Under the pieces are notes generated by a model. That model was not told the origin of the DNA, searched no databases, and worked only from the letters and a program-made list of their open reading frames with translations. 64,000 nt of DNA from an uncultured Chitinophaga sp. (lineage in GTDB: Bacteria > Bacteroidota > Bacteroidia > UKL13-3). Positions 2,696-64,000 of this stretch are shown one piece after another. Within the stretch, counting starts at the first letter, position 1, and each line of letters starts with the position of its first letter. The position numbers and the translations under genes are program-made. Location: positions 28,735-92,734 of the forward strand of contig CAZJHS010000002.1 in the NCBI GenBank assembly GCA_964545895.1. The letters run 5' to 3'.

Positions 2696-2772
2696 GGCCT
2701 CATAGTTCTACCGCAATGGCGGGAGGATAGAATAGTCCTGAAGGCTTTCGGGATTGATGTGGGTTCGATTCC
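2696..2772 (+). pseudogene. Degenerate tRNA-like copy (non-functional cloverleaf)
   Basis: It shares GGNCTCATAGTTC, GATAGAATAG and an identical 18-nt TGATGTGGGTTCGATTCC (variable region, T stem and T loop) with the tRNA 17 nt downstream. It differs in three ways. It carries a CCGC-AATG-GCGG hairpin insertion in the D loop. Its anticodon arm cannot form 5 bp plus a 7-nt loop. It has no 3' acceptor strand complementary to GGCCTCA. Confidence 0.5.
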
Positions 2773-2789
2773 AATTGTTCTTTATATTT

Positions 2790-7640: not shown

Positions 7641-7870
7641 ATGTAAAAATTTTGTGCGAGTTTACTTCAACCCAATTTTGTTTTACTCCTATTTGTGGCT
7701 TAAAAAGGATTTGTATATGCATACAGCTACGTACAAATAAAACTAACGCAAACAGGGCCACAAAGTGTTCTGTATTTTTTAGAATTATATATATACTTGC
7801 AACCTGTATTTAGGTAACCTAAATAGGTTGTACTAAATACTACTTTAAACAATATTACTAACTACAATAC

Positions 7871-7903
7871 AAGGCGTTGCATTTTACATGTAACGCCTTT
7901 TTT
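7871..7903 (+). terminator. Orphan intrinsic terminator ending 5 nt before the trmB start codon
   Basis: AAGGCGTT(7871-7878)/AACGCCTT(7892-7899) followed by a T6 run. There is no plus-strand gene upstream of it. Confidence 0.6.
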
Positions 7904-7908
7904 ACCGC

Positions 7909-8646
7909 ATGGCTAAACAAAAACTAAAGCGATTTAAAGAATTTGCCGAATATCCGCACACCTTTGATTTTGCATACAACCTAAAAGGCAAATGGCACCA
8001 AGAAGTTTTTAAAAACAACAACCCCATTGTGCTTGAGTTAGGCTGCGGTAAAGGTGAATATACGGTTGCGCTGGCCCAGCAATTTCCGCACAAAAACTTT
8101 ATAGGCATTGATATAAAAAGCAACCGCATGTGGGTGGGTGCCAAAAAAGCGCTCGAAAATAACATGCACAATGTAGGCTTTATGCGCGCACTCATGCACC
8201 GCATTAACGAGCTATTTGATGCTGGCGAAGTAGATGAAATTTGGATTACTTTTCCCGATCCTTTTGTGCGCATACGCAGTGCAAAACACCGCTTAACGCA
8301 CACCCGCTTTTTGCGCCTATACCAACAAATTTTAAAACCTGATGGTATCATAAATTTTAAAACAGATAGTGATGAGTTGTTTGCATTTACCCAAAATATG
8401 CTCGAGCATTTAAACATCGCCCCAATTGTTACCGATTATGATGTACATGCCAACCCCCAAGCAGATCCTATGCTAAAAAATGTACGTACCTATTACGAAA
8501 ATTTATTTATGGGCAAGGGCAAAAAAATTAAGTTTACCCAATTTAAACTTAACCAACTAACCGAGGTAAGCGCAAAAGCTTTTGAAGATTGGTTTGAAAC
8601 CGAAAGGTTAAAATTGGTAGAACAAGGATTAAGCACCGGCATATAA
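7909..8646 (+). CDS. trmB: tRNA (guanine-N7)-methyltransferase
   Basis: SAM motif LELGCGKGEYTVALAQQFPHKNFIGIDIK and the TrmB-typical EIWITFPDPF...KHR block. Confidence 0.9.
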   Translation: MAKQKLKRFKEFAEYPHTFDFAYNLKGKWHQEVFKNNNPIVLELGCGKGEYTVALAQQFPHKNFIGIDIKSNRMWVGAKKALENNMHNVGFMRALMHRINELFDAGEVDEIWITFPDPFVRIRSAKHRLTHTRFLRLYQQILKPDGIINFKTDSDELFAFTQNMLEHLNIAPIVTDYDVHANPQADPMLKNVRTYYENLFMGKGKKIKFTQFKLNQLTEVSAKAFEDWFETERLKLVEQGLSTGI

Positions 8647-52989: not shown

Positions 52990-54201
52990 TTGAACTTCAA
53001 AATGCATTTAGTACAGGCAAATCATAACATAAGTTTATATCAAACATGGCGTTACAAAAGCTTATCCTTCGTAAAAAAGGTAGGTTTAGTATTTGGGTTG
53101 ATATTGCTTTTTTGCCATGCAAGTGCACAACGCATCATCGATAGTTTACCAAACCCTGTTGATGTTCAATCATCGTCACAACCCTACTTTTACCAAGGCT
53201 TAACCTATGGCAGCCAACGCAACTTTAACCCCATAACCGTGCTGCTCAACCGCGGGTTCGAAATGTTGCGCATTACTGAACAAAGCGCACGATACAGCCC
53301 ATTTGTACCCGGTTATAAATTTAAAAACATTGTTAAAAATTTAGCCAACCCAATACAGGGAGTGCAACAATATGGTACAAAGGAGTTTTTTTTAGAGCAA
53401 GTAATTCCCTTTGGCGACCCACGCAGACCTTATTGGTTTCCTAATTATGCCTTGCACATGCTTGAAGGTGGCGTAACCTACACCGGATTAAAAGAATGGT
53501 TTGAGTTACACGATGCTCAATATCCCAAAACATACTCAGCAGCAGTTGTTATTTCGGCAGCCTTAATTAACGAGTCGGTTGAGGAAAAAGTAACCAACGG
53601 AAACTTTAGGCTAAATGTAGATGCCGTTGCCGATTTTTGGATTTTTGATGTAGGAGGTATTTTACTGTTTCAATCAAAAAAGGTAAATAAATTTATGAGC
53701 CAAACGTTGCACATGCGCGATTGGTCAAAACAACCTGCTGTGTATTTGCCTACCTTAAACTTAGCCAACTGCGGCCAGTTTCTTTCCTTAAAATGGAATT
53801 TACCCAAATTAAAGAATGTATCGTTTTTTAGTTTAGTGGGCCTCGGTGGTATGGGCGGTTTATCTTACCAATTTAAAAACAACACCAGTTTATCCATGGG
53901 TATAGGCCACGGACCAAGGCGCAAAGAGAGCAACATTTTAGGGTTGCCTATTGATGTGCATTTAGTGCCCATGCTGGGTATTTACTACGATAAAAACAAC
54001 TCCTTATTAGCCTCTTTAGAGTTAAGCAATTCTAAAAACGATTTATACCACAACTATTTTGCTGAGCTAAATTTGTATCCTGGTTTTATTAAAGTAAAAA
54101 AACTCGATCCAACAGTTTGGCTAACCATAGCCCGCGATGGCGATTTTTTAATTGGCCTAGGTTGTAAATACACCTACGGTGTTGGTTTGGGATTGAGGTA
54201 G
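52990..54201 (+). CDS. Hypothetical secreted/outer-membrane protein
   Basis: An internal signal-like segment KKVGLVFGLILLFCHASAQ about 30 aa after the track start. No motif recognised, and the start codon is uncertain. Confidence 0.55.
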   Translation: MNFKMHLVQANHNISLYQTWRYKSLSFVKKVGLVFGLILLFCHASAQRIIDSLPNPVDVQSSSQPYFYQGLTYGSQRNFNPITVLLNRGFEMLRITEQSARYSPFVPGYKFKNIVKNLANPIQGVQQYGTKEFFLEQVIPFGDPRRPYWFPNYALHMLEGGVTYTGLKEWFELHDAQYPKTYSAAVVISAALINESVEEKVTNGNFRLNVDAVADFWIFDVGGILLFQSKKVNKFMSQTLHMRDWSKQPAVYLPTLNLANCGQFLSLKWNLPKLKNVSFFSLVGLGGMGGLSYQFKNNTSLSMGIGHGPRRKESNILGLPIDVHLVPMLGIYYDKNNSLLASLELSNSKNDLYHNYFAELNLYPGFIKVKKLDPTVWLTIARDGDFLIGLGCKYTYGVGLGLR

Positions 54202-54221
54202 GGATTAATGAAATTCAATCT

Positions 54222-55940
54222 CTATAAAGGAAGTCCGTGTTTCAAATCGAAAATTTTAAAAAGCGTTTCTGGGAATTTATTATGTTTTTTGATTTTTAGC
54301 CTCTCACCTATGTATTCGTTAAAGCTAATGAAGGATTTTTCAAAATCTACATCGCGTATTCGTCTTGCCTTTATTTGTTTTTCTCTACCTTTTATATAAT
54401 CACTGTAGTTGCTTAATACAGACTGTAAGTTGATGGTCTTATCTTTTAAATGATTAAGATTATTAAATAAAAAATCAAAGTCCATAATAACCAAATTACA
54501 AATGTGATTGAACTGCGGGTTTATTCCCTTAATCTGCTCCATAAATACATCGTTGATATACTTGTTGATTCCTGGAATATTAAACATATCGTCTGTTATT
54601 ATTAAAATAGGCTGTATTGTAAGTTTTTCTCTGCTAGGTATTTTGGAGTCAAAGTTTACAGTTGATTCTGCAAGCAACTTAATTTGATCAACTAATTGAT
54701 AAACACCAACCTTAGGCGAACAGATTTTTTTGTTAATTTCTTCTTTTATGCATTCATATGTGCCCTTTGCCACAGCATCTGAGGCAAAAGAAACATCTTT
54801 AAACTCAATTAAAATTACCCAATTTCCTTTTCTATAATAACAGTCTGGCTGTTTTTGTCCACTGTCAAAATGCAATACACTATACTTATCTTCAAGTATA
54901 TGTTTCATTATATTTTTGAATATTATCTTTTCAATGATTTTATCAGAAAATCTCGATTTGAAATCAGGGTAATTGATTCCAACTTCTTGTTTTAGGTTGG
55001 TTGTTTTGATAAAATCAAAAATCAAACCCTCGTACAATTTATTTTGTAAAAAAATCCAGCTCATAACGAAGTATTGGTTTTCCTTGAATTTTATGAGTGG
55101 TTTCGATTTTAATCCAGTAAACTCTAAATTATGCCTTGGTTCGCTTTTAAATGTTTTTAAATCAACACAATTTGCTTCAAAAAATGTAGGACGGAAAGTT
55201 ATATTCTCAGCATCCAAATTGAAACCTATTCTTGAAAAGAGTCCCGTTTCTTTACCAGAAATACAATACTCAATTAACTTGACTATTTCTAGCAAGTAAT
55301 CATGTATACTAATTCGGTTATTTATTTTAAGAAATAAATCAACGTAAGGTCCTAAGCGCTCATCCTTCTTGATTTCACTCATTAGGATGACTCCTTTAAT
55401 CATCTGGTAGAAGTAGTTTTGTCTTGTTTGAATATTGTATTGTTTGATACACATTGGCCATAAAGCCTGATAATAGAAACTATCGTTTGTTGTTATTTCG
55501 TATCTTAGTTCATTATTTGTTTTATCATTAAATATTAGAATTGATTTTAAGATTTTCAACTCCTCTTCAGGTGTTGTGTCGATATACCCTTCAGGTATTT
55601 CTCTGAAGTTTATTATCTCATACTCAATAAATTTAAGAATGGAGCGTTCAGTGAATATTGCGAATTCTACGTTTTGATTTTTCGTTAAGGTTTTACTGCA
55701 ATTTATATTCAGTGCTTTAATGATTCCATCTACATATAACCTGTCTTGTCTTTTTAAAAATATCTCATGTAGAATCTTGTTCTGAAGTTTAAATGAGTGG
55801 CCTTCAATATAAAGTCTTGAATTAATTGCTGATAATAGCCCGATTACAATAATAGAAGGTATCCCCCTTAGTAAAGTTTCGACATCTTCGTTATCATGCG
55901 GCCATAAACCTTTATAATCCTGAAGCACACTTATTTTCAT
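54222..55940 (-). CDS. Orphan 572-aa protein with a PD-(D/E)xK-type nuclease motif; AT-richer than its flanks
   Basis: QPDCYYRKGNWVILIEFKDVSF has the form PD-x14-E-F-K, the classic restriction-endonuclease-fold signature. It resembles the PD...EIK core of DUF4263/Shedu-type nucleases. The N-terminal 350 aa carry no motif I recognise. Hand counts on two 60-nt lines give about 23-30% G+C, against about 45% on one line of the adjacent gene. Confidence 0.5.
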   Translation of the reverse strand: MKISVLQDYKGLWPHDNEDVETLLRGIPSIIVIGLLSAINSRLYIEGHSFKLQNKILHEIFLKRQDRLYVDGIIKALNINCSKTLTKNQNVEFAIFTERSILKFIEYEIINFREIPEGYIDTTPEEELKILKSILIFNDKTNNELRYEITTNDSFYYQALWPMCIKQYNIQTRQNYFYQMIKGVILMSEIKKDERLGPYVDLFLKINNRISIHDYLLEIVKLIEYCISGKETGLFSRIGFNLDAENITFRPTFFEANCVDLKTFKSEPRHNLEFTGLKSKPLIKFKENQYFVMSWIFLQNKLYEGLIFDFIKTTNLKQEVGINYPDFKSRFSDKIIEKIIFKNIMKHILEDKYSVLHFDSGQKQPDCYYRKGNWVILIEFKDVSFASDAVAKGTYECIKEEINKKICSPKVGVYQLVDQIKLLAESTVNFDSKIPSREKLTIQPILIITDDMFNIPGINKYINDVFMEQIKGINPQFNHICNLVIMDFDFLFNNLNHLKDKTINLQSVLSNYSDYIKGREKQIKARRIRDVDFEKSFISFNEYIGERLKIKKHNKFPETLFKIFDLKHGLPL

Positions 55941-56119
55941 GTTTAATGGTTCTTATTTTTTACAAGAGTAAGTTCCATTTTTTTCTGAATGAAACAAACT
56001 AAGGTTCAGTATTATCAAAATAATTTATTGAATATGTGTCAGATTTGAGTTTGTATTATTTTGGCGAAGCGCTTGTACTACCTGAAAGTCAATTAGATCA
56101 ATTTCAAACTGAAACTTCG

Positions 56120-56175
56120 GGGCATAAAAAAGCCCAACTTAGAAAAGTGAAACGTTGCTTTTCGTAGTCAGTAGG
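56120..56175 (-). repeat. RNA-like module copy A (conserved box + hairpin + U-tract on the minus strand)
   Basis: GGGCATAAAAAAGCCCAACTTAGAAAAGTGAAAC...TTCGTAGTCAGTAGG. It aligns with copy B at a 172-nt offset. The first 13 nt are identical and overall identity is roughly 80% by eye. Confidence 0.6.
56124..56153 (-). terminator. Terminator-like hairpin + U-tract (minus strand) inside module A
   Basis: Minus strand GTTTCACTT-TTCT-AAGTTGGGC (G-U-rich stem with one mismatch) followed by TTTTTTAT. Confidence 0.4.
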
Positions 56176-56262
56176 ACGGCCGAGCGTTAAAAAATGACCC
56201 GGTGGGTCATTTTAGCGAGAAGCGTGCCCGTGGGGTTGGCATTCCCCTACGACTACAAACGC
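56163..56262 (-). ncRNA. Candidate structured RNA core (closing stem + two internal hairpins); strand and ends unverified
   Basis: Closing stem CGTAGTC(A)GTAGG(56163-56175)/CCTACGACTACG(56246-56257 region). Internal hairpin ATGACCC-GGT-GGGTCAT(56194-56210), extended by A/T and CGTT/AGCG pairs. Small hairpin GGGG-TTGGCATT-CCCC(56232-56247). Confidence 0.35.
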
Positions 56263-56291
56263 AGTTAAATTAAAGTTACAACGAAAATTAT

Positions 56292-56350
56292 GGGCATAAA
56301 AAAGTCCCACTTAAAAAAGTGAGACTCTCAGCGTTTGTAGTCCGTAGGGG
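56292..56350 (-). repeat. RNA-like module copy B
   Basis: GGGCATAAAAAAGTCCCACTTAAAAAAGTGAGAC...GCGTTTGTAGTCCGTAGGGG. Its 3' box is the near-perfect reverse complement of 56244-56262 (CCCCTACGACTACAAACGC): 19 of 20 positions pair, with one bulged C. Confidence 0.6.
56293..56325 (-). terminator. Intrinsic terminator (minus strand) inside module B
   Basis: Minus strand GTCTCACTT-TTTT-AAGTGGGAC (9-bp stem with one mismatch) followed by TTTTTTAT. Confidence 0.55.
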
Positions 56351-56665
56351 TAAAGAGGCTTACACAAACGTGGTTGCCATCCAAGCCTTTGTACACCAGT
56401 TACACTCTCGCCAGCTTATTAAGCGGTTTCTCCTAAATACGCCTGATCTCTTACACTCGAATGTATACGTGTTATTCAATAACTTTAAGTGTATAGATGT
56501 TTTTATACCGGTTCTATCCTCGACCAAAATTCAGAATTTCTTATCTGTGTCTTTAAAATAATCGCACTAATACCTTTAAACAACCTTATTTCATTTGAAA
56601 AAGAGTTTATTAAATTTCATCTATTTGAACGATGTAACAACTATCATCTAAGAAGAAGCTTGTTT

Positions 56666-57190
56666 TCAGCGTTTGAATAATATTCCTTTCACGGCCACAA
56701 AAACACCCATAACAAGCAGTAATGGAATAGCAGTATCCACAGGAACTCCTGGTTCGGTGGGTGGTGGTGGAGTTTCCTGATCATCTGGTTCAAACTCAGC
56801 AATGCTATCTGCCTGTGTATCATAACTGCTGTTTGGTTTAGCCTCAATGGTCTCAGGAATTACGCCCTCGTCACCTCTTTCTTCTGAGCGTAGATCACCA
56901 ATCAATCCATTGCTTGTGGGAAGTCTTCTGCTCTGAGAAGATGCCTTTTTTCTCTTGTATCCACCATTATATAAATCTTCTTCTTTGTAGGATTCTTGAT
57001 AGCGACTTTCCTCCTTTTGCGACTGGTAATAGTATTCATAATAATCTGGACGAAACCTTTCGTAATACTCACCAAGATCAATCTCGTTGTAATCATCATA
57101 GTTGCCTTGCGCTACACTTGCAAAACTAATCAGCACTAAACCCAACAGACCAATGGCTTTTGCTACGTTTAATCGTATGCTTTTTTTCAT
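56666..57190 (-). CDS. Secreted Tyr/Glu/Asp-rich low-complexity protein with a Pro-rich P-V-D + TM + basic C-terminal anchor
   Basis: Signal peptide LVLISFASVAQ. YDDYNEIDLGEYYERFRPDYYEYYYQSQKEE low-complexity region. C-terminus ETPPPPTEPGVPVDTAIPLLLVMGVFVAVKGILFKR. It lies 2 nt downstream of the adhesin gene. Confidence 0.65.
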   Translation of the reverse strand: MKKSIRLNVAKAIGLLGLVLISFASVAQGNYDDYNEIDLGEYYERFRPDYYEYYYQSQKEESRYQESYKEEDLYNGGYKRKKASSQSRRLPTSNGLIGDLRSEERGDEGVIPETIEAKPNSSYDTQADSIAEFEPDDQETPPPPTEPGVPVDTAIPLLLVMGVFVAVKGILFKR

Positions 57191-57192
57191 GG

Positions 57193-60100
57193 CTATTGTT
57201 TTATTAGTTTAATGTGTTGCGTGCCTTGTGTGGTTAGTACCTGTACCATATAAACACCTGCCGCCAAATAGCTCACATCCATTTGTAGCCCTTGCAAGGC
57301 AATGGTTGCTTCTGCTCCTTTTGCATCAAATACTTTTACATCAAGCAACTGTGCCAGGCTATTAATGTGTATTTGAACATTGTTGCTTGCCGGGTTTGGC
57401 ATCAATGCAATACCGGCTTGTGGCATATCATCAGTTAATACAATGGCATGGCTATATGCGTGGCCGTTGTCTTTATCAACCATTTGCAGGCGATAATAGA
57501 TTGTTAGGAGTTGAGATTTGAGAGTTGGGATTTGAGAGTTGGGATTTGAGAGATATTGATTTGTAAAAGCGTTAAAATCGGTAAGCGAATAGTTGTTTGT
57601 TATTGATGAATTGCCTTTGGCTTTTACCGTGCCTATGTTTTGCCAGTTTACATTATCGGTTGATTTTTGAACCACAAAATGGCTGCTGTTTTTTTCGCTT
57701 GCGGTGCTCCAGTTTAGTTGTGCATTGCGTTGTTGTTTTGTGCCTGTGAAACTCAATAAACTTAACGGAAGCGAAGTGTGCTGATCGGTTAGTATCAACA
57801 AAAACCTTTTGCCAAAACTTGCAGGTGTGCTGTTGTTTATGGTGTAGCTGTAGCTTGGTGTGGTTTTTATATTTATCCAATTGTTGGTAAACAAATCAAC
57901 CAAAAAGGCATTTTTTGTTGCCGGTAACGATGCCGTTTCTTCAAAGATTAACCAATAGTTGCCGTTGTTTAGGGCTTGTGTGCTAATTACAAAAGTATCG
58001 GTGCTGTTTGTGTTTAGTGTTTGGCATACATTGCGCTGCACATGTTGGCTATCGGGGGTTATAAAACTAAGGTTTATTAAGTTGTTTGTAAATTTCATTG
58101 CATCTTGGTTAAACACATAGTTTTTGCTGGCTGTGTTTTCAAAACTTAGCCAAGCCACATCATAGCGAATACTGTCGCTATACATTTTTATAGCAAACGG
58201 ATTTACAACCGTTTTAAAATATTGGGTAGGCGAAGTGTTTACTTTATCAACTTCTTCAAAACTCATGCTTTGCGCTAAATCATTAACCTGCACAAAAAAG
58301 CCTTGCGAAATAGCTATATTTTCGCTGGCTGTTTGGTTTACATAATTGCCCGTTACCGGATTTAGTACCCAAAACGAGTTGCTAACATTACTTGTTTTGT
58401 TTATCGCACCATAGTTTATTGGGCAAGGATATGGGTTGCCCATTAGATTCCAACCATCATTAACAGCAAAGCCTGTATTGGTGTATGATAGCGGCAATGT
58501 AGCAATATTACCTTTGTTAATGTTGCCATAAAACGCCATGGTAACATTGTTTGGCACTGTGTTAAAGTTAAGTAAGGAGCCTGTTTGTGTTCTATCACCC
58601 CTAAAAAATACCATACTGCCTTTGCCAGCATCTTGCGTAGCGGTAATGTTAGCAATGTCTTTCCAACCGCGTGTGCCCGTTGTGCTTTCTTGGTAGTGAA
58701 TAATTGATGACGGGGTACCGTTGTGGTCGAAACCATTGGTTGCACCACCAGGTCCGCTTACCAAAATATCGTCAACCAACTGGGTGTAGTTAAAGTTGCT
58801 TATTGGGCTGCTCATGCTGCGCCAACCGCGTTGGGTAACAACACCACCAATCATGTAGCGTTGTATGGTAACATTGCCAGCAACATCGGCTGTGGGTTGA
58901 ATGGCTAGTATTTTTCCGTTAAAACTTAAGTTTGAAACCAACACCAATTTGTTGGCCGTGTTTAGTGTGCCTAGTTGCGGATTTACTGCATCTGTTATTT
59001 TTAAGGTATCGGTTAATAAAACGCCCGCAGCATTGTTTATGGTTAGGTTGGCCAACGTGTTGTTGCTAAACACACCGCCCCAAAGCGTTTGCAAACTTAC
59101 ACCATTTAGCACCAATGTGCCTGTGGTGGCATGTATAGTACCTAAATTATGTATAGCACCTGCACAACTTAGCGTGCCACTAATGGTTAGTGTTGCGCCT
59201 GAGGCTAGACTCACGTTAAGCGCTTGGCCTGTGGTAACTATTGGTTGGTTGGCTGTTGGTACAATGTAGGCTTCTTCGCTGTTGGTTGGCAAGACATTGT
59301 TGCTCCAGTTGCCTGTTGTTTCCCAAGCAGTGCTAAAGGCACCTGTCCATTGGTTAATGCCTTTTTCGTATGCCCCCATATCAATGGTGGTGTTTTGTAT
59401 GCGGGTGTTGCCAGCCAAATCGGTAGCGGAAGCGCCCGTGTTATTGCCGCTGTTTATACTTGGGCTGTTTGGCTGCAATTGCAAACCATCATCAGCTGTA
59501 CCCCATATATTATCTGCCCCATCAAGGTCGTTTTCGTTTACAAAATTGGGGTTGGCGTTTATATTGCCTGTGCCAGTAAAGCCCCCTTGCACATTGCTGT
59601 ACTCAACTACGGGTGTGCCGCTTGCAACGTGAATACCTGCACCTGTTGGGGCAGTATTGTTGTAGATGATGCAATTGCTAATGGTAGCGTTGGTATTGCT
59701 TTGAATTGCCCCACCTTGCAGTGTAGCACTGTTGCCATAAAACACGCTGTTGCGTATGCTGGTGTTTGCACCAGTAAATACTGCACCACCATTGCTAGAA
59801 GCCGTATTATTGGCAAATACACAATTATCAACCGTTTGTGTACCTGCACCAAAACGAACCGCTCCTCCCCAACCTACTGCACTGTTGTTTACAAATACCG
59901 ATTGAGAAAGTTGAATAGTCATACTCGAGGAACTATTAATTCCAGCACTTTCTGACTGTGCTGTATTGCCATTAAACAAACATTTGCTAAAGGTTTGTGT
60001 ACTGCCTGTACCGAATAATCTAATTGTTCCGGCACCACTTGCATTGTTTTGTATAAAGCTGCATTGGCTTAGGCTAAGGTTGCCGCTTAACGTTAAAATG

Positions 60101-63100
60101 GCAGAGGAATTACTACCACTATTTACTACACTGCTGTTTTGCTGCCATACACATTGACTTATACTTGGGCTGGTGCTACTGTTAAAATAAGCACCACCAC
60201 CAGTAACGGTATTTTGGGTAAAAGTAAGCTGGGCAAGGGTAAGGTTGCTGCCGTTGTTGTAGGCATATAAACCTGCACCTCTGTCGTTAGTGGCTAAGCC
60301 ACCCAGAAAAGTGCTGTTGCTGTTGGCATTGCCTTTGGTAAGGGTAAAGCCATCAATAACTACAGCTGCTGTGGCATTGGCTACTACTATTACGTGGTAA
60401 CTGTTATCGGTGCTATCATTGGCTGTGCCAATATCGCCACTTAAAATGGTAAGTCCATTGCTGCCTTCTACCACACCACCAATGCCTTGGTAAGTAGCGG
60501 CAGGGCGTTGGTTTATGGCGGTTTCTGTTCCTACAAAGCCACCATATAGTTTTACGTTGTTGGGTACATTAAAGTAAAGGGTTCTGTCTGTTCCATTTGT
60601 GGGTTTGTATGTGCCTTGGGCTACCCATATTTCTGCATTGGCAGCAAAGCAAGTAGTGTTTAAGGCACTTTGTAAATCAGTATAAGCATCATTCCAACTG
60701 GTGCCATTGTTTGCCCCTGTGGCGTTGGCTTTTACGTATAATCTAGTTGCACCTATGTTTTCATAAGCACCCATATCGGTGGTGGTGCAAATGGTTCTTG
60801 CAGCACCTATAATATCTGTACTACTAACACCTGTGTTAGTACCTGTATTAATGCTTGGGCTGCCTGTTTGCAATGCCAAACCATCATCGGCTGTGCCATA
60901 AATATTATCAGCACCATCAGGGTCGGTGGGGTTTACAAAATTGGGGTTGCTGTTAATATTACCTGTGCCTGCTGTGGTTTGCTGTATGTTGCTGTAGGTA
61001 ATGTTTGGGGTTACACCATCAAACAGGGTTTGGCTGCCCGCGTTATCCCAAATAATAGCATTGTTGATATTAAATGTACCCACACTTCCCCAAGAAGTAA
61101 GTTTTCCAAATGCACTTGCTGTATTTTGAACAAATGTAGAATTGTTTACCTGCATTGTGCCGTTTGTGCCAGATTGTAATCTATAAGATATTGCTCCAGC
61201 AATTTCGGCTGTGTTGTTGTAAAACAAGGTATTGTTAACGGTGCAGTTGGTAGTTGAGGATGCGTTTGAACTAAAAGCATAAATTGCCCCACCATTACTA
61301 CCACCATTGTTATTGGCAAACACACAATTGCTAATGCTCACATTGGTAGTATGTGCCGTTTGTGTATAAACCAGCATTGCCCCAAAAGCTTGCAAAGTAC
61401 TTACATCGGCTACGTTATTTTTAAATACACAGTTGGTAATGCTGATGGTGTGGTTGGCTCCATTGGCTTTGTTGGTAAAACCTGCTGCATCATAATTGCC
61501 GTTATTTTTAAAAGCATCTTGCACCGTAAAGCCATCAAACACCGTACCTGCTGCACAGTTGGTGGCTCTTACTAAGTTGTGTGTATTATCTGTATTTACG
61601 CTTGGTGTGCCAATATCGCCACTTAAAATAGTGGCATTTATACCACCACCAATTAGGTTGCTTGGGCGTTGGTTTAATGCTGTTTCTGTACCCGCAAAAC
61701 CGCCATAAACTTTAACGCCACTTGGAATATTAAAAGTTTCGTTTCTGTTGTTGTTTTGCGATGGTTTGTATGTACCCGCAGCTACCCATATTTCTGCATT
61801 GGCAGCAAAGCAAGTAGTGTTTAAGGCACTCTGCAAATCGGTAAAAGCATTTGCCCAAGATGTACCATTGTTTAAGCCTGTGGCGTTGGTATTTACATAT
61901 AATCTTGTAATAGGTGTAGTTACCGTTACCGTAATAGCATTACTGGTAGCCGTTGCAGGATTGGCACTTGGGCTATTGCTTACCATAGTGCAAGCAATTA
62001 CATCAGCACTTACAAAATCAGTACCTGCAATGCCTGTGTAAGTGGCATTGGTTGCTGCTGCAATGTTTACACTATTTTTTGTCCATTGATAGGTTGGGCT
62101 TACACCACCATTTGTTGGTGTGGCGGTAAAGGTAATGCTGCTGCCACTACAAGTTGGGTTGTTGCCTGTGGTAATGGCTATGCTTACTGAGGGGGTAACA
62201 GTTGTGGTAGTTGGGTTTTCGTAAGCACCCATATCTACTGTGGCATCTACTACACGTGTAGCATTGGTAATATCCAAAGCACTTACGCCAGTATTATTAC
62301 CTGTATTTCGGCTTGGGCTATTGTATAATAGTTGCAAACCATCATCTGCCGTACCCCATATATTATCTGCCCCATCAAGGTCGTTTTCGTTTACAAAATT
62401 GGGGTTGGCGTTTATATTGCCTGTGCCAGTAAAGCCCCCTTGCACATTGCTGTACTCAACTACGGGTGTGCCGCTTGCAACGTGAATACCTGCACCTGTT
62501 GGGGCAGTATTGTTGTAGATGATGCAATTGCTAATGGTAGCGTTGGTATTGCTTTGAATTGCCCCACCTTGCAGTGTAGCACTGTTGCCATAAAACACGC
62601 TGTTGCGTATGCTGGTGTTTGCACCAGTAAATACTGCACCACCATTGCTAGAAGCCGTATTATTGGCAAATACACAATTATCAACCGTTTGTGTACCTGC
62701 ACCAAAACGAACCGCTCCTCCCCAACCTACTGCACTGTTGTTTACAAATACCGATTGAGAAAGTTGAATAGTCATACTCGAGGAACTATTAATTCCAGCA
62801 CTTTCTGACTGTGCTGTATTGCCATTAAACAAACATTTGCTAAAGGTTTGTGTACTGCCTGTACCGAATAATCTAATTGTTCCGGCACCACTTGCATTGT
62901 TTTGTATAAAGCTGCATTGGCTTAGGCTAAGGTTGCCGCTTAACGTTAAAATGGCAGAGGAATTACTACCACTATTTACTACACTGCTGTTTTGCTGCCA
63001 TACACATTGACTTATACTTGGGCTGGTGCTACTGTTAAAATAAGCACCACCACCAGTAACGGTATTTTGGGTAAAAGTAAGCTGGGCAAGGGTAAGGTTG

Positions 63101-64000
63101 CTGCCGTTGTTGTAGGCATATAAACCTGCACCTCTGTCGTTAGTGGCTAAGCCACCCAGAAAAGTGCTGTTGCTGTTGGCATTGCCTTTGGTAAGGGTAA
63201 AGCCATCAATAACTACAGCTGCTGTGGCATTGGCTACTACTATTACGTGGTAACTGTTATCGGTGCTATCATTGGCTGTGCCAATATCGCCACTTAAAAT
63301 GGTAAGTCCATTGCTGCCTTCTACCACACCACCAATGCCTTGGTAAGTAGCGGCAGGGCGTTGGTTTATGGCGGTTTCTGTTCCTACAAAGCCACCATAT
63401 AGTTTTACGTTGTTGGGTACATTAAAGTAAAGGGTTCTGTCTGTTCCATTTGTGGGTTTGTATGTGCCTTGGGCTACCCATATTTCTGCATTGGCAGCAA
63501 AGCAAGTAGTGTTTAAGGCACTTTGTAAATCAGTATAAGCATCATTCCAACTGGTGCCATTGTTTGCCCCTGTGGCGTTGGCTTTTACGTATAATCTAGT
63601 TGCACCTATGTTTTCATAAGCACCCATATCGGTGGTGGTGCAAATGGTTCTTGCAGCACCTATAATATCTGTACTACTAACACCTGTGTTAGTACCTGTA
63701 TTAATGCTTGGGCTGCCTGTTTGCAATGCCAAACCATCATCGGCTGTGCCATAAATATTATCAGCACCATCAGGGTCGGTGGGGTTTACAAAATTGGGGT
63801 TGCTGTTAATATTACCTGTGCCTGCTGTGGTTTGCTGTATGTTGCTGTAGGTAATGTTTGGGGTTACACCATCAAACAGGGTTTGGCTGCCCGCGTTATC
63901 CCAAATAATAGCATTGTTGATATTAAATGTACCCACACTTCCCCAAGAAGTAAGTTTTCCAAATGCACTTGCTGTATTTTGAACAAATGTAGAATTGTTT
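57193..64000 (-). CDS. Giant T9SS-secreted beta-helix adhesin-like protein; 5' end lies beyond the window
   Basis: The reading frame stays open to base 64000, so the track Met at 63936 is internal. It has repeated modules (RLYV-x-ANATG-x-NNGTSW...TDLQSALNTTCFAANAEIWVA-x-GTYKP) followed by Asn/Gly/Ser-rich beta-helix repeats. The C-terminal T9SS CTD is ALMPNPASNNVQIHI...GVYMVQVLTTQGTQHIKLIKQ. Confidence 0.85.
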   Translation of the reverse strand, partial: NNSTFVQNTASAFGKLTSWGSVGTFNINNAIIWDNAGSQTLFDGVTPNITYSNIQQTTAGTGNINSNPNFVNPTDPDGADNIYGTADDGLALQTGSPSINTGTNTGVSSTDIIGAARTICTTTDMGAYENIGATRLYVKANATGANNGTSWNDAYTDLQSALNTTCFAANAEIWVAQGTYKPTNGTDRTLYFNVPNNVKLYGGFVGTETAINQRPAATYQGIGGVVEGSNGLTILSGDIGTANDSTDNSYHVIVVANATAAVVIDGFTLTKGNANSNSTFLGGLATNDRGAGLYAYNNGSNLTLAQLTFTQNTVTGGGAYFNSSTSPSISQCVWQQNSSVVNSGSNSSAILTLSGNLSLSQCSFIQNNASGAGTIRLFGTGSTQTFSKCLFNGNTAQSESAGINSSSSMTIQLSQSVFVNNSAVGWGGAVRFGAGTQTVDNCVFANNTASSNGGAVFTGANTSIRNSVFYGNSATLQGGAIQSNTNATISNCIIYNNTAPTGAGIHVASGTPVVEYSNVQGGFTGTGNINANPNFVNENDLDGADNIWGTADDGLQLLYNSPSRNTGNNTGVSALDITNATRVVDATVDMGAYENPTTTTVTPSVSIAITTGNNPTCSGSSITFTATPTNGGVSPTYQWTKNSVNIAAATNATYTGIAGTDFVSADVIACTMVSNSPSANPATATSNAITVTVTTPITRLYVNTNATGLNNGTSWANAFTDLQSALNTTCFAANAEIWVAAGTYKPSQNNNRNETFNIPSGVKVYGGFAGTETALNQRPSNLIGGGINATILSGDIGTPSVNTDNTHNLVRATNCAAGTVFDGFTVQDAFKNNGNYDAAGFTNKANGANHTISITNCVFKNNVADVSTLQAFGAMLVYTQTAHTTNVSISNCVFANNNGGSNGGAIYAFSSNASSTTNCTVNNTLFYNNTAEIAGAISYRLQSGTNGTMQVNNSTFVQNTASAFGKLTSWGSVGTFNINNAIIWDNAGSQTLFDGVTPNITYSNIQQTTAGTGNINSNPNFVNPTDPDGADNIYGTADDGLALQTGSPSINTGTNTGVSSTDIIGAARTICTTTDMGAYENIGATRLYVKANATGANNGTSWNDAYTDLQSALNTTCFAANAEIWVAQGTYKPTNGTDRTLYFNVPNNVKLYGGFVGTETAINQRPAATYQGIGGVVEGSNGLTILSGDIGTANDSTDNSYHVIVVANATAAVVIDGFTLTKGNANSNSTFLGGLATNDRGAGLYAYNNGSNLTLAQLTFTQNTVTGGGAYFNSSTSPSISQCVWQQNSSVVNSGSNSSAILTLSGNLSLSQCSFIQNNASGAGTIRLFGTGSTQTFSKCLFNGNTAQSESAGINSSSSMTIQLSQSVFVNNSAVGWGGAVRFGAGTQTVDNCVFANNTASSNGGAVFTGANTSIRNSVFYGNSATLQGGAIQSNTNATISNCIIYNNTAPTGAGIHVASGTPVVEYSNVQGGFTGTGNINANPNFVNENDLDGADNIWGTADDGLQLQPNSPSINSGNNTGASATDLAGNTRIQNTTIDMGAYEKGINQWTGAFSTAWETTGNWSNNVLPTNSEEAYIVPTANQPIVTTGQALNVSLASGATLTISGTLSCAGAIHNLGTIHATTGTLVLNGVSLQTLWGGVFSNNTLANLTINNAAGVLLTDTLKITDAVNPQLGTLNTANKLVLVSNLSFNGKILAIQPTADVAGNVTIQRYMIGGVVTQRGWRSMSSPISNFNYTQLVDDILVSGPGGATNGFDHNGTPSSIIHYQESTTGTRGWKDIANITATQDAGKGSMVFFRGDRTQTGSLLNFNTVPNNVTMAFYGNINKGNIATLPLSYTNTGFAVNDGWNLMGNPYPCPINYGAINKTSNVSNSFWVLNPVTGNYVNQTASENIAISQGFFVQVNDLAQSMSFEEVDKVNTSPTQYFKTVVNPFAIKMYSDSIRYDVAWLSFENTASKNYVFNQDAMKFTNNLINLSFITPDSQHVQRNVCQTLNTNSTDTFVISTQALNNGNYWLIFEETASLPATKNAFLVDLFTNNWINIKTTPSYSYTINNSTPASFGKRFLLILTDQHTSLPLSLLSFTGTKQQRNAQLNWSTASEKNSSHFVVQKSTDNVNWQNIGTVKAKGNSSITNNYSLTDFNAFTNQYLSNPNSQIPTLKSQLLTIYYRLQMVDKDNGHAYSHAIVLTDDMPQAGIALMPNPASNNVQIHINSLAQLLDVKVFDAKGAEATIALQGLQMDVSYLAAGVYMVQVLTTQGTQHIKLIKQ
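57511..57552. repeat. 14-bp tandem repeat x3 inside the adhesin gene
   Basis: TTGAGATTTGAGAG / TTGGGATTTGAGAG / TTGGGATTTGAGAG. The unit length is not a multiple of 3. It encodes LSNPNSQIPTLKSQL, about 85 codons upstream of the stop. Confidence 0.85.
59498..61147. repeat. Copy 1 of an apparently exact long direct repeat (period 2,853 bp)
   Basis: 59498-61147 matches 62351-64000. I checked several lines base by base (59501/62354, 60001/62854, 60901/63754, 61089/63942). The embedded track ORFs are identical (59607..59852 = 62460..62705; 59966..60157 = 62819..63010). Confidence 0.85.
62351..64000. repeat. Copy 2 of the long direct repeat; continues past the window edge
   Basis: As for copy 1. 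Below 59498/62351 the two copies remain alignable without gaps but carry substitutions, for example 59461-59497 versus 62314-62350. Confidence 0.85.

Follow-up and report, generated by a model that had tools for sequence, protein, structure and literature searches.

Tandem terminator-like modules and an inverted repeat upstream of a FokI-like nuclease gene in a Bacteroidota contig: a probable junction region

The window analysed here, that is, the whole 64-kb stretch of DNA, comes from a lineage of Bacteroidota for which metagenomes are the sole source, and the locus of interest is carried by eight contigs from six samples. It is centred on a gene-free gap of 725 nt (55941-56665), and the three genes bordering this gap are all located on the minus strand (as shown in Table 1). 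On the upstream side, the gap is adjoined by a 174-aa gene, which is preceded by a 2247-aa gene (57193-63936) whose product carries a type IX secretion sorting tail; on the downstream side there is a 572-aa gene with about 30% G+C, compared with about 39% in the surroundings. A search of 5.8 billion clustered sequences yielded just three homologs of the 174-aa protein, and the relatives of the neighbouring 403-aa protein found in a scan of genome contigs are 58-60% identical and are not syntenic. By blastn, the gap is 100% identical in the eight same-species contigs, and its surroundings are likewise identical almost everywhere; since the contigs hardly differ outside the repeat-rich 2247-aa gene, the invariance of the gap says nothing about constraint. 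The differences among these contigs are nearly all located in 57750-59000 and 59500-60750, inside the 2247-aa gene, where they amount to as many as 55 per 250 nt, and a few other spots are affected. This gene, which contains internal repeats of about 62-66% identity, has the appearance of a variable type IX secretion cargo rich in repeats, unless repeats have been mixed in the assembly. An invertible segment was also considered and rejected, one orientation being found in all eight contigs.

Table 1. Features of the gap, its flanking genes and the tRNA-bearing loci of related nuclease genes (window positions unless a locus is named).
Feature	Position	Strand	Remarks
403-aa gene	52990-54201	+	signal-peptide-like N-terminus; no Pfam or NCBIfam match
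Putative cassette end	54198-54221	.	20-nt spacer and GTAGGGATTAA, overlapping the stop codon of the convergent 403-aa gene
572-aa gene, predicted FokI/Nt.BspD6I-like PD-(D/E)xK nuclease, putative cassette cargo	54222-55940	-	about 30% G+C; assigned by composition, motif and fold
Candidate -7 element of the nuclease gene	55995-56002	-	TTAGTTTG; 5/6 specified positions of TAnnTTTG
Degenerate fourth box	56068-56090	+	left arm of the older unit copy; 10/19 identical to box C at 172-nt offset
Module A	56120-56175	-	decaying paralog of module B, 79% identical to it
Module A, U-tract	56126-56131	-	followed by ATGCCC
Module A, hairpin	56132-56152	-	weak
Module A, box A	56157-56175	-	CCTACTGACTACGAAAAGC
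Middle hairpin	56189-56213 (stem 56191-56213)	.	AAAATGACCC/GGGTCATTTT; A-run and T-run on its flanks
Box C, inverted box copy	56244-56262	+	left arm of palindromic 56244-56350; pairs with box A too
Module B	56292-56350	-	no strong terminator-like site lies between it and the 174-aa gene
Module B, U-tract	56298-56303	-	followed by ATGCCC
Module B, hairpin	56300-56329	-	
Module B, box B	56331-56350	-	CCCCTACGGACTACAAACGC
3' untranslated region of the 174-aa gene, host-derived	56537-56665	-	homologous to L019, z 3.5
174-aa gene	56666-57190	-	low-complexity product; no Pfam or NCBIfam match
tRNA-bearing locus L010	5648-6001		
tRNA-bearing locus L068	1-1609		
tRNA-bearing locus L015	1-2147		
tRNA-bearing locus L013	862-6001		

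The 572-aa protein has no match in Pfam, PADLOC or NCBIfam, and no PDB sequence matches it. Its 15 homologs, the contexts of which are all unrelated, share the invariant residues D366, E379 and K381, and the AlphaFold2 model (pLDDT 85) finds Nt.BspD6I and FokI as its top Foldseek matches, which are weak (E ~7e-3). It is similar to the type IIS enzyme FokI and the nickase Nt.BspD6I in length (572 vs 580-604 aa), in the helical N-terminal half and in the C-terminal PD-(D/E)xK domain; however, the TM score over the whole chain is only about 0.2, and an adjacent methyltransferase was not identified. The modelled fold and the D...ExK motif thus support a FokI/Nt.BspD6I-like PD-(D/E)xK nuclease, in agreement with the first-pass annotation, which had described an AT-rich, nuclease-like gene.

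Two homologous modules, A and B, are located in the gap in direct orientation. The 13-mer GGGCATAAAAAAG, with which both of them begin, occurs exactly twice in the 64-kb window (56120 and 56292), and blastn aligned 56111-56175 with 56283-56348 over 67 nt at 79.1% identity with 2 gaps (E 1.2e-8), so that the earlier description of two modules of about 80% identity, 172 nt apart and identical in their first 13 nt, is confirmed. With the same 172-nt spacing, an ungapped 78-nt repeat of 72% identity lengthens the homology to about 100 nt, that is, approximately 56076-56175 against 56248-56350. Box C corresponds to the reverse complement of box B with 95% identity over 20 columns including one gap (19/20; blastn), the perfect arms being 12 nt long, and it is also largely complementary to box A, as had been noticed before. 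The duplicated unit of 105-107 nt is itself palindromic and is composed in turn of box C, 29 nt, the terminator and box B, and in the older copy of the unit (about 56072-56175) the left arm is degenerate. From the region of this fourth box, GTAGTACAAG (minus strand) is common to the window and L010, a locus of another 572-aa homolog. A third copy of the module or the box was not found in the 64-kb window, and the unit is the sole long-range inverted repeat of such kind in any of its intergenic regions. An extended inverted duplication relating the interior of the unit to the region upstream of module B was rejected (z -0.3).

The predicted folding energies of these repeats are considerable. 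The B:C' stem reaches -47.9 kcal/mol (z -9.0) and the C':A stem -41.0 kcal/mol (z -3.4), and the fold of 371 nt is stable as a whole (z -4.2). The hairpin of module B (-16.1 kcal/mol, z -4.4) is followed by U6 and is the sole strong terminator-like hairpin of the two modules, whereas that of module A is weak and no better than shuffles (z -1.0); at two stem positions, the differences of hairpin A from B are all such that G-U pairing is preserved on the minus strand. The middle hairpin (-11.7 kcal/mol, z -2.7), again followed by U6, looks from its sequence like a bidirectional intrinsic terminator. An intrinsic terminator is expected to have a stable stem-loop and, directly after it, a U-tract, both in the orientation of the upstream genes; these features are present at B and at the middle hairpin and missing at A. 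No earlier terminator was found between the 174-aa gene and module B, and a simple consensus terminator scan flagged neither module A nor B, nor the middle hairpin. As for the compact multi-hairpin core described previously, its ATGACCC/GGGTCAT hairpin is present, and the centroid structure of the C'-A segment contains only the outer stem and one 10-bp hairpin. The box arms, including C', sit outside both terminator stems; since C' overlaps neither of them, alternative pairing would not gate termination.

Module B and the middle hairpin resemble Rho-independent terminators, among which are tandem and bidirectional ones located between convergent or unrelated genes, in having a G+C-containing stem-loop and then a U-tract in the orientation of the upstream genes, and the pairing of the middle hairpin is preserved by compensatory changes (see below). 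Unlike ordinary terminators, the units here have been duplicated along with about 40 nt of flank, module A has no convincing hairpin, and module B lies inside a 19/20 long-range stem, which ordinary terminators lack.

The only alignable relative of this non-coding region is L009, the locus of a 75%-identical 572-aa homolog in an unrelated genome. BLAST of the gap against the loci of the 572-aa homologs returned nothing, but this null result was misleading, and the L009 homology was recovered by Smith-Waterman alignment with shuffles. The region upstream of the L009 gene aligns with window positions 56310-56127 at z 4.9, a score that is reached by 0-1 of 100-200 shuffles, and the alignment runs to the start codon; upstream of module B nothing aligns with L009. 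Since the alignment covers the modules and stops short of anything upstream of B, the modules belong to the cassette of the nuclease gene and not to the host. On the host side, 56537-56665 has no homology to L009, and in L019, a short contig with a 53%-identical homolog of the 174-aa protein, the shared sequence is confined to the first ~115 nt past the stop codon, so that the host-derived part ends between 56537 and 56350. In L017, synteny breaks off at the 174-aa homolog, and a tRNA-Arg(CCT) comes next on the opposite strand. Positions 56120-56350 would accordingly form the 5' non-coding arm of a ~2.15-kb single-gene cassette, which would have been acquired horizontally and may extend roughly from 54198 to 56350.

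Within this arm, the identity between the window and L009 is 52%, compared with 50% at the 4-fold degenerate sites of the gene, which means that divergence of the arm has been close to neutral. The A-like and B-like hairpins of L009 are decayed (-3.5 and -3.2 kcal/mol, z about -0.3), the B:C and C:A inverted repeats have no counterpart there, and box A has lost its CCTAC part. Only the middle hairpin is kept, as ATGCCAA/TTGGCAT in L009 against ATGACCC/GGGTCAT in the window, with three double-sided (compensatory) changes, zero disruptive ones and conserved flanks, GCTAAAATG and TTTAACGC; as MAFFT left the 3' strand of this hairpin out of register, the compensatory pairs were taken from the individual folds. 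In addition, A and B (79%) are closer to each other than B of the window is to B of L009, which requires a younger duplication or gene conversion.

Known RNA families give no support to a structured RNA. The Rfam 15 covariance models, a check proposed at the outset, detected no family in the gap at any threshold, even when just 126 nt were searched; the best matches there are at chance level (Atu_C8, E 8.5; narK, E 3.3), and across the whole 64-kb window the only family found is the tRNA-Arg at 2790. One or two functional small RNAs had been suggested for the modules: the first, either derived from the 3' untranslated region or independent, would end at terminator B, and the second would run from C' to A over about 140 nt, closed by a long stem and ending at A. 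Terminator-like 3' ends on the minus strand and the stable 371-nt fold are what such RNAs would be expected to leave; the perfect identity of the gap in eight contigs could be added, but these contigs are identical everywhere except inside the repeat-rich gene, which makes the invariance uninformative. Apart from the Rfam result, it weighs against this suggestion that L009 has nothing homologous to the sequence upstream of B, that it has lost the A and B hairpins together with the closing stem at a neutral-like rate of divergence, and that no convincing promoter for an sRNA was found in the gap. Small RNAs are considered unlikely here.

The other suggestion, a switch between pairings, amounts to a riboregulatory leader or attenuator, in which pairing of C' with B or with A would control read-through into the nuclease gene. 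It would account for two mutually exclusive long stems and for three serial terminator-like hairpins upstream of a potentially toxic gene, but it is weakened by the position of C' off both terminator stems, by the absence of the pairings in L009, by the upstream gaps of the distant homologs, which measure just 20-190 nt, and by a promoter-like element which is conserved with L009 and sits downstream of all modules. TAnnTTTG is the -7 promoter consensus of Bacteroidota, and AGTTTG within the candidate element is aligned between the window and L009; a promoter of its own seems to precede the nuclease gene, ~55 nt before the ATG. Judged by this sequence comparison, the B:C pairing is not a conserved switch, and the attenuator is the least credible of the readings considered, being highly improbable. 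A riboswitch or attenuator class in the general sense was rejected for lack of an alternative pairing that overlaps a terminator stem and of the inverted repeat in L009.

More informative are the loci of related nuclease genes. The decamer TTTTTTATGC is found after a hairpin, upstream of the nuclease gene and on the same strand, in the window (twice), L009, L010 and L068, and has just 3 further occurrences in all the remaining fetched loci. In L010, a bona fide tRNA-Asn is directly followed by the hairpin and TTTTTTATGCC; there is no second tRNA-Asn fragment within 8 kb, and the similarity of L010 to the window is weak by itself (z 2.0). At the beginning of L068 are the T-arm, the acceptor and the CCA of a tRNA (tRNA-His), and an exact 14-nt repeat of this 3' end is located 141 nt downstream. 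A terminator stands after each copy of the tRNA 3' end, the second one with TTTTTTTTATGC, and the architecture is the same as that of modules B and A. Altogether, a same-strand tRNA occurs upstream of the 572-aa homolog in 4/7 distinct loci (Asn in L010, His-like in L068, Leu in L015 and L013), the tRNA-Leu being 2.1 kb away in L015 and 5.1 kb away in L013.

Since a tRNA or a tRNA 3' fragment occupies the corresponding position in related cassettes, the modules may be regarded as relics of a junction that have been copied through recombination and are undergoing decay. The explanation towards which the evidence inclines is that they are duplicated units of an RNA-gene 3' end plus its terminator, with the remaining role of ending the upstream operon and shielding the nuclease gene. 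The arm would then be a tandemly duplicated unit, each copy of which has on the minus strand a short box, a Rho-independent terminator and TTTTTTATGCC, and the boxes would stand where the 3' end of an RNA gene of tRNA type is expected. Hairpin B and the conserved middle hairpin would stop transcription coming from the operon of the 2247-aa and 174-aa genes, so that the nuclease gene is insulated. On this view, the inverted box C and its 19/20 stem would have arisen incidentally from the palindromic form of the unit that was duplicated, and template switching or gene conversion may have sharpened them. Among the earlier suggestions, a duplicated RNA-gene 3' end left by an integration event comes closest, in that the modules travel with the nuclease gene and L010 and L068 offer a tRNA precedent for a putative origin of the boxes from a tRNA; an integrase is absent nearby.

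Direct comparison of the boxes with tRNAs gives the following picture. ARAGORN found no tRNA or tmRNA in the gap at its default or at the 90% threshold; at the 80% threshold it called a 94-nt fold at 56164-56257 (+), which is one among 36 such calls in 64 kb. The Rfam tRNA model detected nothing in the boxes or their context, the tRNA-Arg of L017 matched nothing in the gap above noise, and the boxes have no significant similarity to any tRNA compared. Outside true tRNAs, the 3' halves of tRNA-Arg and tRNA-Leu score highest in the window at 56210-56257 (+), by a marginal difference (25 vs 23 and 23 vs 20, respectively). When tRNAs with the 3' end CCTACNGACTAC were sought, a single tRNA-like family from phages came up, about what is expected by chance. 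The idea of box C as a relic of an ancestral tRNA-Arg was dropped: the resemblance does not rise above noise, and L017 shows no synteny with the left flank of the tRNA-Arg in the window.

At the junctions of genomic islands, direct repeats of tRNA or tmRNA gene 3' ends can occur as the attL/attR sites of tyrosine-integrase elements, such as NBU1 at tRNA-Leu in Bacteroides. The modules resemble such island junctions in being direct repeats, in the succession of a short box and a terminator, in their place at the edge of foreign AT-rich DNA, and in the true tRNA of L010 and the duplicated tRNA 3' fragment of L068 at the corresponding position. They differ in that the window has neither an intact RNA gene at this place nor an integrase or recombinase near the cassette (no recombinase domain was found in the neighbouring genes), that the repeats are 172 nt apart instead of flanking a kb-sized element, and that the likeness of the boxes to tRNA is marginal or at noise level.

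The palindromic unit could also be a MITE- or REP-like mobile element of 105-107 nt, with terminal inverted repeats of 19-20 nt and an internal terminator, present in two copies. Correia/CREE (Neisseria), ERIC and RUP are palindromic miniature elements of this kind, which occur in tens to hundreds of dispersed copies with target-site duplications. The unit is like them in its length of ~105 nt, its ~20-nt terminal inverted repeats, its intergenic location and its potential to act as a terminator, and the 19/20 match of the arms, the direct orientation of the two copies, the uniqueness of this inverted repeat among the intergenic regions of the window, and the Y1 transposase and REP-like repeats adjoining the L010 homolog all fit such an element. 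Unlike them, however, the two copies are adjacent and the only ones in the 64-kb window, and no target-site duplication is visible at 56243/56351. Moreover, box scans of viral and metagenome collections (the latter without this locus) gave single matches at chance level only, plasmids and phages gave no match, and the cassette of L009 has the interior without the inverted repeats. A link of the unit to the IS200/IS605-type transposase flanks of L010 was rejected, as there is no similarity between them. A mobile element is unlikely to the same degree as the small RNAs.

The ends of the cassette suggest another reading, in which the boxes, with a core of GTAGGG or GTAGG, are att-like recombination sites that take single-gene cassettes, the 172-nt stretch from B to A being an ORF-less mini-cassette. 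GTAGGG occurs 5 times on the + strand of the 64-kb window, including both cassette ends (54198 and 56344), and box A has GTAGGA; the rare motif at both ends is treated as a lead only. On the strand of the gene, CCCTA(A/C) is conserved ~20 nt past the nuclease stop codon in the window, L009 and L010, and in the window and L009 it provides the stop codon of the convergent host gene; the 403-aa protein is 1-2 residues shorter at its end than its homologs. This conserved end motif, its overlap with the stop codons of host genes, and the same tandem architecture around a true tRNA core in L068 are compatible with recombination sites. Yet the shared core amounts to only 6-9 nt, the window has no recombinase, the CCTAC part of box A is not kept in L009, the putative ends in L010 would be inverted and not direct, and the integron-type core GTTRRRY is absent, which leaves att-like sites quite unlikely. 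In a wider and very unlikely form, the boxes would serve for recombination in an undescribed family of nuclease cassettes, which would have a single gene and no integrase and would insert at the 3' ends or terminators of tRNA or other genes; the B-to-A stretch would again be an ORF-less mini-cassette, and the palindromic B-C would be a folded site recognised in trans. If the boxes were indeed recombination sites, they would define how solitary defence-type genes move. The positions 54198-54210 (GTAGGGATTAA) and 56344-56354 (GTAGGGGTAAA) form direct repeats at the ends of the ~2.15-kb cassette.

Other known systems were rejected as well. An integron attC is excluded by the missing RYYYAAC / GTTRRRY cores at the stem ends and by the lack of a nearby intI; a type III toxin-antitoxin system does not agree with just two copies of 172-nt period, a FokI-like protein and no PADLOC match; and a retron was rejected on gene content and motifs.

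The comparison with L009 or the absence of additional copies counts against each of the rival explanations. On present evidence, the feature is real and most likely ordinary in kind, that is, a junction region and not a new RNA class, and it illustrates that conspicuous repeats, direct as well as inverted, may be predicted to fold strongly and yet be the scar of a gene acquisition together with a terminator region. There are two by-products: an uncharacterised family of FokI-like nucleases in Bacteroidota, which recurs just downstream of tRNA genes, and a junction module of hairpin and TTTTTTATGC, which marks the upstream arm of the nuclease gene in the window, L009, L010 and L068.

Several minor observations were made on the related loci and on tRNA-like sequences. 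In L068, positions 17-30 / 158-171 and 89-107 / 234-252 outline a tandem duplication of ~141-145 nt, which comprises the tRNA 3' end CCCCATCATCCACC, the terminator and a box, GGCGAGARGTTYATCCCGA; this box is also found upstream of the L009 homolog (z 4.9). The neighbours of the tRNA-linked homologs include a Shedu-type SduA_C protein, a GIY-YIG protein and a kinase, and in L069 a large serine recombinase adjoins the 572-aa homolog. In L010, two REP-like repeats (CCCCCGCTMCCGC...GTGGTAWAAAG) are located at 7800-8120 between the nuclease homolog and the Y1 (IS200/IS605-type) transposase gene. Elsewhere in the window, a degenerate tRNA-like copy at 2704-2782 (+) with the T-arm GTGGGTTCGATTCC directly precedes the tRNA-Arg(CCT) at 2790-2862; it scores 34 against the 3' part of tRNA-Arg, is called by ARAGORN at the 80% threshold only, and suggests past recombination at tRNA-Arg. 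Finally, the IMG/VR contigs L070-L075 contain a phage tRNA-like gene of 95-98 nt (e.g., L072 5956-6053, minus strand), which has a Leu-type D-arm, a long variable arm, a canonical T-arm and an encoded CCA, and in which a long stem, capped by UUCG in L072-L075, takes the place of the normal anticodon arm; with 27.8 bits it falls slightly under the Rfam tRNA threshold.
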